Assembly: GCA_019338205.1 (NCBI GenBank)
Contig: GCA_019338205.1_4761.1
Source: a phage
Length of the DNA stretch: 64,000 nt
Strand: one strand, 5' to 3'
Shown: positions 16,411-55,850 of the stretch, piece after piece
Layout: each line of letters begins with the position of its first letter
How positions within the stretch are numbered: the stretch's first letter is position 1
Notes under the pieces: model-generated
Databases searched by the model: none
The model's input: only the letters and a program-made list of their open reading frames with translations
What the model was told of the DNA's origin: nothing
Made by a program: the position numbers and the translations under genes

Positions 16411-16445
16411 TTGACAACATGAAACGGGGGTAGTAAGATACCCCC
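16411..16445 (+). promoter_or_regulatory. early promoter cassette with hairpin enclosing -10 (TTGACA-N17-TAAGAT)
   Basis: TTGACA 16411-16416; stem gggggta/taccccc 16426-16432 with 16439-16445 around TAAGAT. Confidence 0.5.
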
Positions 16446-16470
16446 ACAAACAAACGAAAGGAGAATCAAA

Positions 16471-16629
16471 ATGAAATTCATCGGTAAAACTTTTATGTTC
16501 GTAGCTGGTACTCTGTTTACTGCAACTCTGTTAGCTGGTGGCTTAGATATCTTTACTGCCTTTGAAACTTTCGGGTATACTGTAGCATCGGGTGCTCTCT
16601 TCGGATTGGGTTTAGCGATTAGCAAATAA
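16471..16629 (+). CDS. small hydrophobic membrane protein (52 aa)
   Basis: ATG after ggagaatcaaa leader; below ORF-track size cut-off; G/A-rich TM-like sequence. Confidence 0.45.
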   Translation: MKFIGKTFMFVAGTLFTATLLAGGLDIFTAFETFGYTVASGALFGLGLAISK

Positions 16630-18221: not shown

Positions 18222-18250
18222 TTGACAGGGGAGGATAACTCCCCTACAAT
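18222..18250 (+). promoter_or_regulatory. early promoter cassette with spacer hairpin (TTGACA-ggggag..ctcccc-TACAAT)
   Basis: TTGACA 18222-18227, inverted repeat in spacer, TACAAT 18245-18250. Confidence 0.55.
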
Positions 18251-31284: not shown

Positions 31285-31317
31285 GGGCTATCCTTCGGGA
31301 TAGCCTTTTTGTTTTTT
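31285..31317 (+). terminator. intrinsic terminator
   Basis: ggctatcc-ttcg-ggatagcc hairpin plus T-run. Confidence 0.75.
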
Positions 31318-31322
31318 GGGTG

Positions 31323-31350
31323 TTGACAATGAAAATCATAGTGCTATAAT
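31323..31350 (+). promoter_or_regulatory. early promoter cassette TTGACA-N16-TATAAT
   Basis: TTGACA 31323-31328, TATAAT 31345-31350. Confidence 0.6.
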
Positions 31351-33839: not shown

Positions 33840-33868
33840 TTGACAGGGGATCGCGTATCCCCTATACT
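33840..33868 (+). promoter_or_regulatory. early promoter cassette with spacer hairpin (TTGACA-gggga.tcccc-TATACT)
   Basis: TTGACA 33840-33845; palindrome ggggatcgcgtatcccc fills the 17-nt spacer; TATACT 33863-33868. Confidence 0.55.
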
Positions 33869-33911
33869 ACACACATCAAAACGAAACACACTTTTCTTAA
33901 GGAGAATCAAA

Positions 33912-34190
33912 ATGAGCAACCTGTCTTTCGCTAAAGTAGAAATTTCCAAAACTCGCGGTGGCATCAAAATCAAAACTTCCAATATCACTTCCTGCCGTGG
34001 TTGCGTCCGGTTTGCGTTCGACTTGGCAGCGAAGCTGGGTATTAAAACCTTTACCGTTGAGAGCGGATCTAACTGGACCACTCTGATTGTTACTGCCGCT
34101 TGGATCAATGGTGAGTATGTAGAAAAGGCATACTTTGACATTTTCTATGACTACGAAGAAAAATGCTTTTATGCACTGCAAGACATGTAA
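33912..34190 (+). CDS. hypothetical early protein (92 aa)
   Basis: ATG after cassette leader. Confidence 0.45.
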   Translation: MSNLSFAKVEISKTRGGIKIKTSNITSCRGCVRFAFDLAAKLGIKTFTVESGSNWTTLIVTAAWINGEYVEKAYFDIFYDYEEKCFYALQDM

Positions 34191-34516: not shown

Positions 34517-34545
34517 TTGACATGAAAATGCGGTTATCATATAAT
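34517..34545 (+). promoter_or_regulatory. early promoter cassette TTGACA-N17-TATAAT with hairpin around -10
   Basis: TTGACA 34517-34522, TATAAT 34540-34545, stem gcggt/accgc flanking. Confidence 0.55.
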
Positions 34546-34579
34546 GACCGCATCAAATGAACGATGTGAGGATTATATT

Positions 34580-37741: not shown

Positions 37742-37770
37742 TTGACAATAAGAAATGGGAGTAGTAAAAT
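37742..37770 (+). promoter_or_regulatory. early promoter cassette with hairpin enclosing -10 (TTGACA-N17-TAAAAT)
   Basis: TTGACA 37742-37747; gggagt/actccc stem around TAAAAT 37765-37770. Confidence 0.5.
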
Positions 37771-37801
37771 ACTCCCATCTAATCAAGAAGGAGAATCAAC
37801 A

Positions 37802-38652: not shown

Positions 38653-38681
38653 TTGACATGATGAAACGGGAGTAGTAAGAT
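38653..38681 (+). promoter_or_regulatory. early promoter cassette with hairpin enclosing -10 (TTGACA-N17-TAAGAT)
   Basis: TTGACA 38653-38658; gggagt/actccc stem around TAAGAT 38676-38681. Confidence 0.5.
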
Positions 38682-38712
38682 ACTCCCATCTAAACAACGA
38701 GAGGATTATATT

Positions 38713-39891
38713 ATGGCTAAATTCTTTGAAGGGCATTACTACGCATTCCGTGAAGGCGGTAAAGATGAGTTTCTAGACTTTTCTCGCTATTCAATTACTC
38801 TGACCGATACTTCGCGCCGTGGTCATATTCGGGTTGCTGAAATTGTAGAAAAGGGCTTTAAAGTATTAGAAAAAGATGACCACGGTCATGTTGTTACTAT
38901 TGAAGCTGGAGATGTAGTTTATTCCGCTGAGGATATCGTTTATTATTGGGCTACTATGATTATGCACAATGAGCGCAAATACTTTAAACGCATCTCAAAA
39001 GAGGCATACGAAGCGATGAACAAGAAAGAGGATGCAATGCCGACTTACTTTGAAAAAGGTAAATGTTATTCGTTTACCCCGGAAGGTTTGCAAGAATTTA
39101 AGCGATTCTGGGGAGAGCATGATCCAGAGCACAAAGAAGCCATGAAACTTGTTGATTTTGTCGAATATGGCTTTTTAGTTGAAGAAGAATTGCACGGATC
39201 GGCTACCATGATCACCGCGAAAGGTGAAACTGTTAAGGCGGATCGTTTTTGTGACCAATGGAATTGCTTGTTTGACGGTAGCGAATTTGAATACTTCGCG
39301 GAAATCACGCGAGTTGAATATGTCCGTATGCAAGAGCGTGGTCAGAGATTTAAAGTAGGCGAACGATACAAGCCAAATCCACATAATTTGCCTCATTGGT
39401 TTAATACTGAAACCGTATCCAGTCATGTTATTGAAATTATTAAAACGCTGGAACATGGATTTAAGGTAACTAAAGTAGATTCTTTCGGAAGTGTTGACGC
39501 TGTTGAAGTTGATGGTGTAGAATATACTCCTAAATCTTTCGGGCTTTGCTGGTATCACCTGATCAGCAATGATGAACGTTATTACTTTGTTGAACTGCCA
39601 TCTGAACCGGAAGAAGCACTAGAAGATCATGATCATCTGTCTGAACTGGTTAAGCTGTTTGGTGATCTGCCGGATGGTGTAGGGGTGGCGGTAATGGGTG
39701 AAGGTGCTGTTATCCGAAACCTGAAAGACTTTAAAAAGTTCTTGATTGACATGCTGCCTAAACTTGATGATAATCTCGATAAAGATATTCAGAATCGCAA
39801 AGAAATTGTTAAAGATACTGAAAAAGAGATCGAAGAGATTCGAGCAATTCGCCAGAAGGTGAAAGCAGTAAAGAAAAAAGTTAGTTCTTGA
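38713..39891 (+). CDS. nrdD-flanking multigene family protein with three tandem modules
   Basis: three internal repeats each ending (E/D)R(K/Y)YF..(I/L) plus C-terminal LKDFKKFL...PKL helical tail. Confidence 0.5.
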   Translation: MAKFFEGHYYAFREGGKDEFLDFSRYSITLTDTSRRGHIRVAEIVEKGFKVLEKDDHGHVVTIEAGDVVYSAEDIVYYWATMIMHNERKYFKRISKEAYEAMNKKEDAMPTYFEKGKCYSFTPEGLQEFKRFWGEHDPEHKEAMKLVDFVEYGFLVEEELHGSATMITAKGETVKADRFCDQWNCLFDGSEFEYFAEITRVEYVRMQERGQRFKVGERYKPNPHNLPHWFNTETVSSHVIEIIKTLEHGFKVTKVDSFGSVDAVEVDGVEYTPKSFGLCWYHLISNDERYYFVELPSEPEEALEDHDHLSELVKLFGDLPDGVGVAVMGEGAVIRNLKDFKKFLIDMLPKLDDNLDKDIQNRKEIVKDTEKEIEEIRAIRQKVKAVKKKVSS

Positions 39892-39915
39892 CATGCGAAG
39901 GGAGTATGCTATAAT
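39888..39915 (+). promoter_or_regulatory. early promoter cassette TTGACA-N16-TATAAT flanked by gggagt/actccc
   Basis: TTGACA 39888-39893 overlaps upstream stop; TATAAT 39910-39915 inside hairpin loop. Confidence 0.55.
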
Positions 39916-39945
39916 ACTCCCACTTAACAACGAGAGGATTATATT

Positions 39946-42347: not shown

Positions 42348-42353
42348 TTTTCA

Positions 42354-42384
42354 GCCGATCCGAAAGGGTCGGCTTTTTCGTTTT
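42354..42384 (+). terminator. intrinsic terminator
   Basis: gccgatcc-gaaag-ggtcggc hairpin plus TTTTTCGTTTT. Confidence 0.7.
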
Positions 42385-42390
42385 GGGGTG

Positions 42391-42418
42391 TTGACAACCT
42401 GATTAGCTAATGTATAAT
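42391..42418 (+). promoter_or_regulatory. early promoter cassette TTGACA-N16-TATAAT
   Basis: TTGACA 42391-42396, TATAAT 42413-42418, leader tcacatcgaaaacaacgagagg. Confidence 0.6.
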
Positions 42419-43529: not shown

Positions 43530-43538
43530 AATAAATGC

Positions 43539-43567
43539 TTGACGGGGATCGCGAGATCCCCTATACT
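43539..43567 (+). promoter_or_regulatory. early promoter cassette with spacer palindrome (TTGACG-gggatcgcgagatccc-TATACT)
   Basis: TTGACG 43539-43544; spacer palindrome; TATACT 43562-43567. Confidence 0.55.
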
Positions 43568-43609
43568 ATATTCATCAAGACGAGATACAACTTTACAGGA
43601 GAATCAAAT

Positions 43610-43762
43610 ATGTGGACTTTACTGATTTGGGAAACTGAAAACGCACAAGTAGAAATCCGTGAATACGAATACCTAAGCCCAGCTTATCTATTAGCATCTC
43701 GCGGTGGTTACTATAAAGCGCAGATTGTAAACGAGTTCGGGGTGATTGAATATGAGTTCTGA
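43610..43762 (+). CDS. small protein (50 aa)
   Basis: ATG after ggagaatcaaat leader. Confidence 0.4.
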   Translation: MWTLLIWETENAQVEIREYEYLSPAYLLASRGGYYKAQIVNEFGVIEYEF

Positions 43763-46100: not shown

Positions 46101-46583
46101 ATGTTTGTTGCTGGCGTGACCTATCAGTGGAAAGATAAGAAAACGAGAGAAGATTTTGCAAACTTTAGCGTTGCAAATGATGCAATAGCAGAGTTTATAG
46201 GCGACCGTCCATTTAAAGTTATCGCATTTGATCACCATGCATCGGATGTTGATTATGTTTCTGCGATTGAAATTGATGGCACGGTATACACCTGCTGCAA
46301 TGTTGATGATGTACGGGAATACGCGCACAACTGGTTTTTGCAATCAGAAGAACGTCATTTTAAAGTGGTATCGGCAGAACTGACCACTGATGCAATGTTG
46401 GAACAATTTTTCAACAACTACGAAGTTTCTGTACGTCGATACGGTGAAGAGGAAGTATTTAAAATTGATGACTATAATCAGTTTAAACGAGTATTCGCCA
46501 CTAAGATCCAACGTGATATTGAACGCGAGAAGCGCATTAAGGAACTGGAAGAAGAACTAGAAAGATTAAAGGCTGAGAAATGA
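46101..46583 (+). CDS. KWEVGKTY-family protein (divergent)
   Basis: GVTYQWKD...RPFKV...NWFLQSEERHFKVV plus coiled-coil tail. Confidence 0.5.
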   Translation: MFVAGVTYQWKDKKTREDFANFSVANDAIAEFIGDRPFKVIAFDHHASDVDYVSAIEIDGTVYTCCNVDDVREYAHNWFLQSEERHFKVVSAELTTDAMLEQFFNNYEVSVRRYGEEEVFKIDDYNQFKRVFATKIQRDIEREKRIKELEEELERLKAEK

Positions 46584-46849
46584 TCGAGATATACGGTATA
46601 CCGAAAGAGGCTTATCATTGTTATGGTTGTATTAGTGCAATGAAGCTACTGGATGATCTGGGTATTCCGTATACACTTAAACCAGTATTCAAGCCGGTCG
46701 GGGTTGACATTATTCCCGACCGTGATATGATTGAAGAACTGGCGGGGAGGCTAAACTCAAAGAGCCTCCGGTTTGTATACCCCCAGATATTCATTGACAA
46801 CGAGCACATTGGAGGCTATAAAGAACTGAGGGCGATTTATGATTATTGA
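46580..46849 (+). CDS. nrdH: glutaredoxin-like protein NrdH
   Basis: CYGC active site; PQIFIDNEHIGGY glutaredoxin motif. Confidence 0.8.
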   Translation: MIEIYGIPKEAYHCYGCISAMKLLDDLGIPYTLKPVFKPVGVDIIPDRDMIEELAGRLNSKSLRFVYPQIFIDNEHIGGYKELRAIYDY

Positions 46850-49945: not shown

Positions 49946-50971
49946 ATGAAAATTTTGCTTTTAGGTGATCTGCATACTGGCATCGGTGGCGATGATCCGT
50001 GGGTGCATGAATATATTTTAGACACGATCAAGAAAGCGGTTGATTATTCTAAAGAAAACGGTATTAAGATATGGATTCAAACAGGGGATTGGTTTGATTG
50101 TCGCAAGGCTATCACACATGAAACCATGAAATTTAACCGTACTAAGGTCATCCCATTACTGGAAGAGGCAGGAATCACCTGTTATATCACGGTCGGGAAT
50201 CATGATATGTTTAAGCGCAATAAGATCCAGCCTAACTCGCCGCGTGAAGTGTTAAGCCAGTATGATTGCATTAAGGTTATTGATAAGCCGGAAACAGTTA
50301 CCTTTGATGGGGTATCATTCGACCTGTTCCCGTGGTTTTGTGATGACAATAAATCCGAGGTTTTAGAGTTTATTCAAAATTCATTCAGCGAATATTGTGT
50401 AGGCCATTGGGAGTTGTCCGGCTACTATTTCTATAAAGGGTTAAAATCCGAAGGTTATAGCGCGGACTTCCTCAAGAAATACCGTGAAGTGTTTTCCGGT
50501 CACTTTCATACTATCAGTGATGGCGGTAACGTAACGTATATAGGTACACCATACACACTAACGGCGGGTGACGAAAACGATCCGCGTGGTTTTTGGGTAT
50601 TCGATACAGATACACACAAAAAGGAGTTTATCCAGAATGACAAAACTTATCATGTGCGTATCACTTACCCGTCAGATGATAAAATCGATGTAGAACGCTT
50701 TAAAGGGCTTAGTGTGCGCCTAATTGCAACGGTCGCTGATAATGGGTTAACTAAGTTAGAAAGCGCGTTAGAGGCCGTTGTACACAAGCTAAAAGTGGTC
50801 CATAAGCTGGAGAGTAGCGCATCACAGGAAACAGGTGTTATTGAAGTTAAAAGCACTATTCAGATGGTCTATGAATATCTGGAAGAACAAAACCTAGAAC
50901 CGGAAGAACTTGCGGCAGTTAAGCGTATCTCTGATGAACTTTTAGCCGAAGTAAATAGCGCAAAAAGTTAG
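49946..50971 (+). CDS. 47: recombination endonuclease subunit gp47 (Mre11/SbcD-like)
   Basis: phosphoesterase motifs GDLH, GNHD, GHFH; 341 aa versus T4 339 aa. Confidence 0.93.
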   Translation: MKILLLGDLHTGIGGDDPWVHEYILDTIKKAVDYSKENGIKIWIQTGDWFDCRKAITHETMKFNRTKVIPLLEEAGITCYITVGNHDMFKRNKIQPNSPREVLSQYDCIKVIDKPETVTFDGVSFDLFPWFCDDNKSEVLEFIQNSFSEYCVGHWELSGYYFYKGLKSEGYSADFLKKYREVFSGHFHTISDGGNVTYIGTPYTLTAGDENDPRGFWVFDTDTHKKEFIQNDKTYHVRITYPSDDKIDVERFKGLSVRLIATVADNGLTKLESALEAVVHKLKVVHKLESSASQETGVIEVKSTIQMVYEYLEEQNLEPEELAAVKRISDELLAEVNSAKS

Positions 50972-51000
50972 TTGACGCGGGGAGAAATCCCCGTTATACT
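50972..51000 (+). promoter_or_regulatory. early promoter cassette with spacer hairpin (TTGACG-cgggga.tccccg-TATACT)
   Basis: TTGACG 50972-50977, TATACT 50995-51000. Confidence 0.55.
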
Positions 51001-55098: not shown

Positions 55099-55785
55099 AT
55101 GAAACTGACTAAAGAAACCATTGCTACCCTGAAAAACTTTTCCGCTATTAACCCAGGTATCATCCTGAAAAAAGGAAACGTCCTGATCACCAAAAACATG
55201 ACAAACGTTGTATATGGTGAAGCGACTCTGAATCAAGAACTGGAACACGAAATTGGGATCTATGATCTTAACTCTTTCTTGGGTATTCTGAATCTGGTAG
55301 GCGATGAAGCAGATATTACGGTTGATGACCGCACCGGAAACATTCGTGTGTCTAATGATCGTCTGAAAATTAATTATCCTGGTGCTAGTGCTGCCGCCAT
55401 CGTATCACCGAAAGGCCGAGTTACTCCACCTGCAAGCGATGTAGATTACGAACTGAGCAACGACGATCTGAAACAGCTTATGAAAATGAGCAATCAGCTT
55501 AAAGTGGATCGCCTTGAATTTCTTCCGATTGATGGTCGTCTGATGATCAAAGGCTGGGAAGAGATTGACAAAAATAATCCGAATGAGATGTTTTGTCTTG
55601 ATATGGGCGAATATACCGGAACCGCAGACTTCCATTTCTTTATTCGTAAAGATAACATGAAACTGGTTGCTACTGACTTCGGCGATTACAAACTTAGCTT
55701 CACTCGCCGTAAGGCTGTATGGCTGGCAAGTGAAACCGTATCTTATATGATCGCGTGTGACCTTGACTCCAGCTACACCGACTAA
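55099..55785 (+). CDS. 45: sliding clamp gp45
   Basis: MKLTKETIATLKNFSAINPGIILK matches T4 gp45 N-terminus. Confidence 0.95.
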   Translation: MKLTKETIATLKNFSAINPGIILKKGNVLITKNMTNVVYGEATLNQELEHEIGIYDLNSFLGILNLVGDEADITVDDRTGNIRVSNDRLKINYPGASAAAIVSPKGRVTPPASDVDYELSNDDLKQLMKMSNQLKVDRLEFLPIDGRLMIKGWEEIDKNNPNEMFCLDMGEYTGTADFHFFIRKDNMKLVATDFGDYKLSFTRRKAVWLASETVSYMIACDLDSSYTD

Positions 55786-55797
55786 TATAATGATTGT

Positions 55798-55817
55798 GGG
55801 GAGTGTAAATACTCCCC
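55798..55817 (+). other. stem-loop between genes 45 and 44 (ggggagt-gtaaat-actcccc)
   Basis: perfect 7-bp stem, weak GTTTT tail; same gggagt/actccc arms as promoter cassette hairpins. Confidence 0.4.
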
Positions 55818-55850
55818 GTTTTAATGATGTAATTTGTGAGAGGTGATTAT

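Follow-up and report, generated by a model that had tools for sequence, protein, structure and literature searches.

The promoter at positions 33840-33868 of the 64,000-nt stretch of phage DNA analyzed here (the window) raises the question why a G+C-rich inverted repeat should be written between its -35 and -10 hexamers, and why similar repeats recur in other promoter cores nearby. The feature is one of the PeSL (promoter-early stem-loop) cassettes of RB49-like T4-type phages and thus a rediscovery of an element that is already known. PeSLs were described in phi1 and RB49, at about 50 per genome, by Arbiol et al. 2010 (PMC2839356), and the concept was extended to other T4-like phages by Comeau et al. 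2014 (PMC4122927). We consider it likely that each cassette unites a compact promoter with an RNA hairpin by which transcription reading through from upstream is stopped or attenuated, and that recombination also uses the cassettes as patches of homology. This analysis establishes the structure, the selection on it, the covariation and the layout; promoter and terminator activity of class-1 elements, which carry the hairpin in the spacer, is taken from the literature. Our additions are modest and comprise the constraint on the stem arms across up to 19 genomes, covariation among paralogues, a lean in wobble variants and the mutual exclusivity with separate terminators. They support an RNA-level, terminator-equivalent role and speak against an operator.

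The window derives from an RB49-like coliphage (Krischvirus) with 95-98% identity to E26, phi1 and RB49. Queries of 4 kb and 25 kb around the feature matched ~60 Krischvirus genomes at 94-98% identity over near full length, including E26, kaaroe, phi1, RB49, GEC-3S and JSE, with E26 as the closest isolate (about 97%). The window is oriented antiparallel to the RB49 and phi1 records and, by the phi1 annotation, spans roughly the baseplate genes to genes 45/44/43, with one long hyperplastic region of small early ORFs. Scans of IMG/VR anchored on Dam and NrdC.11 yielded three usable loci only, and orthologous regions were instead gathered from up to 19 related genomes among the GenBank phage records. 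No Rfam family matched anywhere in the window at gathering score. An HNH homing-endonuclease gene between dam and nrdC in four related loci is absent from the window, and nrdD, unlike in the window, is split by a homing-endonuclease insertion in JSE. SSG23, Brandy and JK32 carry an additional ORF of ~2.1 kb, and loci L010, L013 and L017 differ from the window after rI.-1.

Promoters with embedded hairpins

Four promoters on the + strand, to which all coordinates refer, have a spacer that is almost entirely hairpin, with the stem between -35 and -10 (class 1). At 33840-33868, TTGACA and TATACT enclose the 17-nt spacer GGGGATCGCGTATCCCC, which forms the hairpin AGGGGAT.cgcgt.ATCCCCT (33845-33863, loop in lower case; RNA dG -10.1 kcal/mol). 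Across 20 genomes its stem is invariant, and its loop occurs in seven variants. The promoter at 43539-43567 (TTGACG-17-TATACT, spacer GGGATCGCGAGATCCCC) contains GGGGATC.gcga.GATCCCC (43544-43561; -13.9 kcal/mol), and three relatives carry the inverted loop TCGC. The remaining members are 18222-18250 (TTGACA-17-TACAAT, spacer GGGGAGGATAACTCCCC) with AGGGGAG.gataa.CTCCCCT at 18227-18245, and 50972-51000 (TTGACG-17-TATACT, spacer CGGGGAGAAATCCCCGT) with CGGGGA.gaaa.TCCCCG at 50978-50993, which lies directly 3' of the gene 47 stop codon. Directly 5' of the -35 hexamer, cataaaaagttg precedes TTGACA at 33840 and tttaaaataaatgc precedes TTGACG at 43539. Some records, as seen when the E26 and Skers annotations were compared, contain a 228-nt ORF at 43535-43762 with its ATG at 43535, inside the 43539 promoter, and others annotate just a 153-nt downstream ORF. 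Reading through the cassette during annotation probably created the longer ORF as an artefact.

At seven further sites the loop holds the -10 hexamer and the 3' arm fills positions -6 to -1 (class 2). Two of them share the same arms, GGGGGTA.gtaaga.TACCCCC (16426-16445) in the promoter at 16411-16445 (TTGACA-17-TAAGAT) and GGGGGTA.gtaata.TACCCCC (24287-24306) in that at 24272-24306 (TTGACA-17-TAATAT), the latter adjoining the upstream stop codon. The site at 38653-38687 (TTGACA-17-TAAGAT) forms GGGAGTA.gtaaga.TACTCCC (38668-38687), a stem that is destroyed in one relative. Longer arms occur at 37742-37778, 3' of gene 49 (TTGACA-17-TAAAAT; ATGGGAGTA.gtaaaa.TACTCCCAT, 37755-37778), where ARNOLD called the orthologous site of phage G2494 a terminator, and at 34517-34553 (TTGACA-17-TATAAT), whose 10-pair hairpin ATGCGGTTAT.catata.ATGACCGCAT (34528-34553) includes one sense-strand U·G pair. 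The site at 39888-39921 (TTGACA-16-TATAAT) forms GGGAGTAT.gctata.ATACTCCC (39900-39921). The seventh, at 18915-18949 (TTGACA-17-CATAAT; GGGTGTAT.agcata.ATACACCC, 18928-18949), was absent from the preliminary description of this DNA. A preference for C at -3 to -1 in RB49 early promoters (Nolan et al. 2006) corresponds to the class-2 3' arm. Many cassettes share a leader of the form ...ACACACATC(A/G)AAACGAAA...GGAGAATCAAAATG, for instance at 33899-33915 and 16458-16473.

Hairpins of this kind also lie outside promoter cores, upstream of the promoter at 31286 and 42353 and downstream of it at 55798. At 31286-31350 the T-run terminator GGCTATCC.ttcg.GGATAGCC followed by TTTTTGTTTTTT precedes a hairpin-free promoter (TTGACA-16-TATAAT), and at 42353-42418 AGCCGATCC.gaaa.GGGTCGGCT with TTTTCGTTTT is arranged likewise before another TTGACA-16-TATAAT. 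The gene 45/44 junction (55763-55825) carries the hairpin GGGGAGT.gtaaat.ACTCCCC (55798-55817) with the tail GTTTTAAT; with its GTTTT tail it has the shape of a canonical terminator, and two groups have annotated it as such, in GEC-3S and Makalu_003. Two more hairpins were observed in passing. A strong 9-bp hairpin, GCGGGTAGT...ACTACCCGC, occupies an intergenic gap at 20682-20706 with no convincing sigma-70 promoter and no T-run, and in almost all relatives its arms are kept and its loop is rewritten. Within the nrdH coding region (46580-46849), an 8-bp hairpin at 46695-46722, CGGTCGGG...CCCGACCG, has GTTGACA in its loop and TATGAT 16 nt 3'; this promoter-like site, with the -35 in the loop, is conserved in relatives, one of which has a G·T variant.

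When the sequence was re-read, all eleven sites of the preliminary description were found at their coordinates, including the spacer palindromes at 33840, 43539, 18222 and 50972. Its stems bracketing the -10 hexamer exist at all six sites for which they were reported (16411, 24272, 37742, 38653, 39888 and 34517), but at 34517 the arms read ATGCGGT/ACCGCAT and not gggagt/actccc. The arms that it placed at 55798-55817 without a promoter are there as well, but a TTGACT-17-TATAAT match at 55763-55791, overlapping the end of gene 45, precedes them.

Constraint, covariation and strand

The scan combined a regular expression with a hairpin search; it took promoter-like sites followed by a Shine-Dalgarno (SD) sequence and ATG and required the core to contain a perfect stem of 6 bp or more whose arms each hold 4 or more G/C. 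Such a hairpin is found in 11 of the 23 promoter plus SD/ATG sites, against an expectation of 0.10 +/- 0.32 and a maximum of 2 in 2000 shuffles in which the non-hexamer positions only were shuffled. The whole window holds 44 strong hairpins, compared with 17.3 +/- 4.9 in dinucleotide shuffles. RNA stabilities of the embedded hairpins range from -10 to -16 kcal/mol, and the hexamers at 33840, 34517, 37742, 38653, 39888 and 43539 score 10-12 of 12 matches to the consensus.

Column variability was determined for the 11 embedded-hairpin sites across 15 related loci. Variable columns made up 6 of 149 (4%) in the stem arms, 1 of 63 in the -35 hexamer and 1 of 56 in the -10 hexamer, as opposed to 8 of 30 (27%) in the loops and 22 of 53 (42%) in the remaining spacer (stem versus loop plus other spacer, Fisher p = 2e-10). 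The stem arms are conserved as strongly as the hexamers, and the G+C-rich repeats are real and under selection. Because a sigma-70 spacer has little sequence requirement of its own, this constraint belongs to the stem.

As orthologous stems hardly vary, covariation was sought among paralogues, using the copies in the window together with copies from a second hyperplastic region, in phi1. Pairing statistics were computed in Python on hairpin-centred sequences; MAFFT alignments put the 5' arms in two registers. Among the 16 distinct class-2 sequences 95% of cells are paired, and double-sided changes (G-C, A-T, T-A, C-G) occur at seven of the eight stem positions. Sliding the partner by 1-3 nt lowers pairing to 37-58%, and the observed value was not attained in any of 1000 partner shuffles. 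The ten class-1 sequences are 90% paired with double-sided changes at six of eight positions, and again 0 of 1000 partner shuffles reach this level. The stem arms, whose covariation across copies the preliminary description had proposed to check, thus do covary among paralogous copies, and the structural part of its interpretation stands. The arms comprise at least ten different sequences, among them ATGCGGT/ACCGCAT and GGGTGTAT/ATACACCC, in at least two registers relative to the hexamers; the comparison of cognate with non-cognate arms is partly circular, as the hairpins were selected as hairpins, and was used just for this count of distinct arm types.

A transition in a Watson-Crick pair gives G·T or A·C depending on the strand, and only a strand that folds as RNA tolerates G·T. 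Among curated orthologous sites and phi1 paralogues, the sense-strand stem variants include eight of the G·U type versus one or two of the A·C type. The former are an A-to-G change at 37742 that yields U·G in four relatives, three independent variants at different positions of 34517, one each at 33840 in G2494 and at 20682 in GEC-3S, and the phi1 cassettes 193/191 and 208/207. The one clear A·C-type variant affects the terminal pair at 20682, and an ambiguous one a flank position at 38653. With a one-sided binomial p of about 0.02-0.055, the bias is borderline. These curated sites replaced an automated tally of hairpins at all loci, which included chance matches in coding regions and artefacts such as a bulge misread as A·C. 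Rows from loci without the 16411 region, which returned the paralogous 24272 cassette, were not treated as orthologues. The T-run terminators at 31286 and 42353 show two G·U events and no A·C event. The sense-strand lean towards G·U suggests selection at the RNA level, with strand-biased C-to-T mutation as an alternative source.

Role of the hairpins and competing explanations

The layout of the junctions suggests why a hairpin would be placed inside a promoter. The -35 hexamer starts 0-15 nt past the upstream stop codon; at 24272 and 50972, TAG directly precedes TTGAC (24269-24277 and 50969-50977), and at 39888 the frd.2 stop codon TGA lies within TTGACA itself (39889-39891). A separate terminator does not fit into so short a gap, and the hairpin is placed instead at positions that the promoter can spare, namely the 17-nt spacer in class 1 and, in class 2, the distal part of the spacer together with the discriminator (-6 to -1). 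Eleven promoters have an embedded hairpin, five have an upstream T-run terminator (15958, 17953, 28911, 31323 and 42391) and none has both (hypergeometric P = 0.024). Such mutual exclusivity is expected of two layouts that serve one function, the embedded one in less space. Under the canonical terminator rule of a stem plus at least 5 T in 8, which the separate terminators of this phage pass, none of the embedded hairpins qualifies on the sense strand, where the 8 nt that follow contain 0-4 T; the class-2 tails, e.g., AUCUAAAC and ACAAACAA, are especially poor U-tracts.

Briefly, each cassette consists of an A/T-rich upstream stretch, a near-consensus sigma-70 early promoter, the G+C-rich hairpin and a short leader with a GGAG-type SD, followed by the initiation codon of a small early gene. 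By standard sigma-70 geometry, its own transcript would start ~7 nt past the -10 hexamer and should then lack the hairpin, which would form only in read-through RNA from the upstream gene. There it would terminate or attenuate read-through transcription in infected cells, and probably also cap the 3' end of the upstream message, so that each small early gene is insulated. Class-2 hairpins would presumably play the same role as those of class 1.

Reporter data on phi1 bear on this model. Arbiol et al. (PMC2839356) placed the PeSL211/210 stem-loop between a strong promoter and lacZ on a plasmid and found expression cut about as much as by rrnB T1; in this reporter, used on one class-1 stem-loop, the drop could stem from termination, RNA processing or polarity. 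Promoter activity of whole PeSLs was high enough that hexamer mutations were present in most clones, and about 13,000 Miller units were measured for one clone with wild-type PeSL206/205 (PMC2839356). In the phi1 genome, the tested stem-loop is located upstream of ORF210 and reads TTGACA-GGGGATCGGTGATCCCC-TTATAAT, and the tested promoter PeSL206/205 reads TTGACA-GGGGATCACCGATCCCC-TATACT. Both are class-1 spacer palindromes with GGGGATC/GATCCCC arms as at 33840 and 43539, and the published promoter and terminator/attenuator activity covers phi1 elements of class 1 only (PMC2839356). Together with arm covariation, purifying selection and G·U-leaning transitions, the rrnB T1-like drop in lacZ caused by a stem-loop of the same type supports the proposal of the preliminary description that an RNA structure is superimposed on the promoter. 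Against our reading of the hairpins as terminators or attenuators speak their lack of a canonical U-tract, unlike in the separate terminators of the phage, and the loss of the 38653 stem in one relative, by which a given hairpin is not essential.

The cassettes may in addition act as homology patches for recombination that shuffles genes, because many share 30-60 nt of near-identical sequence. PeSL recombination was proposed to drive gene shuffling and the formation of mini-circles (PMC2839356). Several observations in the relatives concern such exchange. In LF73P4 the cassettes orthologous to 43539 and 37742 are replaced by other variants, TTGACA-GGGGATCGGTGATCCCC and AAAGGGAGTAGTAATATACTCCC, which looks like conversion or exchange between paralogous PeSLs. 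Comparison of window positions 43544-43561 and 33845-33863 with loci L005/L012/L014, L002, L009/L010 and L017 revealed flipped loops between unchanged arms, i.e., GCGA versus TCGC at 43539 and GCC versus GGC or ACC versus GGT in the GGGGATC/GATCCCC family. Loops that are reverse complements of each other within inverted arms are suggestive of events at the DNA level, either template switching or intra-arm recombination. In phi1 (112000-128000), two degenerate cassettes at junctions 194/193 and 197/194 retain the 3' arm ATACACCC, the 5' arm being lost; in one of the two a separate T-run terminator lies upstream instead. Both look like recombinant chimeras. The link to recombination drawn in the preliminary description is thus right in outline, PeSLs being published recombination substrates and whole cassettes being swapped at orthologous sites, but the mechanism would be homology between cassettes and not cruciform cleavage.

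A different RNA-level function, which we regard as rather unlikely, is that the hairpins are mainly 3'-end protectors or processing barriers, which block 3'-to-5' exonucleases after RegB or RNase E has cut in the downstream SD and thereby stabilize the upstream cistron. The missing U-tract after the embedded hairpins and a structure that appears to act as sense-strand RNA are both compatible with it. Moreover, the window region carries a regB gene (~24627-25091), the GGAGAATCAAAATG-type sites of downstream leaders agree with the target of T4 RegB (GGAG/U with an A-rich 3' side), and RegB cuts in T4 open the way for 3' exonucleases. However, a class-1 stem-loop reduced lacZ about as much as rrnB T1 did in uninfected E. 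coli, where RegB is absent, and the exclusivity with canonical terminators fits a terminator-equivalent role; it fits protection too, so that both roles may coexist. Recognition of GGGG...CCCC as duplex DNA by a phage or host protein, either a regulator at an operator or a recombination helper, appears improbable to us. Arbiol et al. speculated that this motif is a protein target for recombination (PMC2839356), the G-run and C-run are common to most arms, and whole cassettes were exchanged at the orthologous sites of 43539 and 37742 in LF73P4. An operator would be expected to have one half-site at a fixed position with a constrained centre, but the many arm sequences, their differing registers and positions relative to the hexamers and the hypervariable, unconstrained loops depart from this on every count, which argues against the operator for a sequence-specific regulator that the preliminary description had considered. 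The tolerated G·T pairs would count as mismatches only in a folded single strand and have no bearing on a site that is bound as duplex. For recombination, no dedicated recombinase was identified by the PeSL authors, who cite that short homology suffices in T4-type recombination (PMC2839356).

Two further explanations are more remote. Extrusion of a cruciform in the spacer or around the -10 hexamer could act as a supercoil-sensitive switch that inactivates the promoter or attracts endonuclease VII; perfect inverted repeats inside the promoter core would permit it, gene 49 (endonuclease VII) is located in the window region, and the loop inversions show that arms pair intrastrand at the DNA level at least occasionally. 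Short G+C-rich inverted repeats with 3-6 nt loops extrude poorly at physiological superhelicity, however, and the arms concerned are merely 6-10 bp long, G+C-rich and separated by loops of 3-6 nt. Furthermore, the promoter activity of a class-1 cassette on a plasmid is very high, a sense-strand G·U bias is meaningless for a symmetrical cruciform, and template switching during replication explains the loop flips equally well, so that we consider a cruciform switch highly improbable. Least credible of all, in our view, are hairpins without any function that are kept perfect by quasi-palindrome template switching and gene conversion between cassettes while riding along with a mobile promoter. The loop flips and cassette conversions, the phi1 cassettes 194/193 and 197/194 without a 5' arm and the orthologue with a lost stem are of the kind that such a process would leave. 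Yet stems are ten-fold less variable than the adjacent spacer of the same cassettes, many different arm sequences each remain complementary, hairpins and canonical terminators exclude each other, and a stem-loop of the same type has measurable activity in a reporter.

Reading the hairpins as terminators or attenuators of read-through sharpens the questions how a hairpin without a U-tract stops transcription and whether class 2 works likewise. It is intriguing, if quite speculative, to propose that the embedded hairpins, especially the U-tract-less ones of class 2, form a self-insulating promoter, in which polymerase coming from upstream is halted over the next promoter and passed on to it, or are recognized by a putative phage factor such as a recombination helper or an RNA-processing or termination factor. 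If true, polymerase handover or recognition by a phage factor would add a new mechanism to an element that is already known. A 29-bp unit uniting a very strong promoter with an insulator against upstream transcription is a useful design in synthetic biology.

Relation to known systems

An inverted repeat between -35 and -10 is also the hallmark of the engineered E. coli promoter of Horwitz and Loeb (1988), which is reportedly regulated by cruciform extrusion in the spacer, a longer palindrome shutting the promoter under supercoiling. The PeSL arms, in contrast, are short, their wobble bias points to RNA and the promoter is very active. N4-type hairpin promoters and single-stranded-DNA promoters were dropped as a comparison, since the phage uses host sigma-70 promoters with intact duplex hexamers. 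With canonical intrinsic terminators, including those of the phage itself at 31286 and 42353, the embedded hairpins share a stable G+C-rich RNA hairpin just past the stop codon, at the same position of the junction; they differ in having no U-tract and in overlapping a promoter.

PeSL-like elements at the internal-protein loci of T-even phages and in PST/T4 and nt-1/KVP40 are likewise composites of an early promoter and a stem-loop that border variable genes, with a proposed role in shuffling. They are described as analogues and not homologues; they have T4-type early promoters and weaker, A/T-richer stems without polyG/polyC. The closest match by far are the PeSLs of phi1 and RB49. These, too, join a near-consensus sigma-70 early promoter, A/T-rich on its upstream side, to a GGGG...CCCC stem-loop that lies between -35 and -10 or over the -10 hexamer, and in hyperplastic regions they occupy the interval between an upstream stop codon and the SD/ATG of a small ORF. 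In PeSLs generally, the stable stem-loop, often polyG...polyC, takes one of five positions relative to the promoter. Nothing essential sets the cassettes of the window apart. The window belongs to a different isolate, in which loops and a few stem positions differ, and site-by-site alignment with phi1 and other Krischviruses identifies its sites as orthologous at 95-98% identity.
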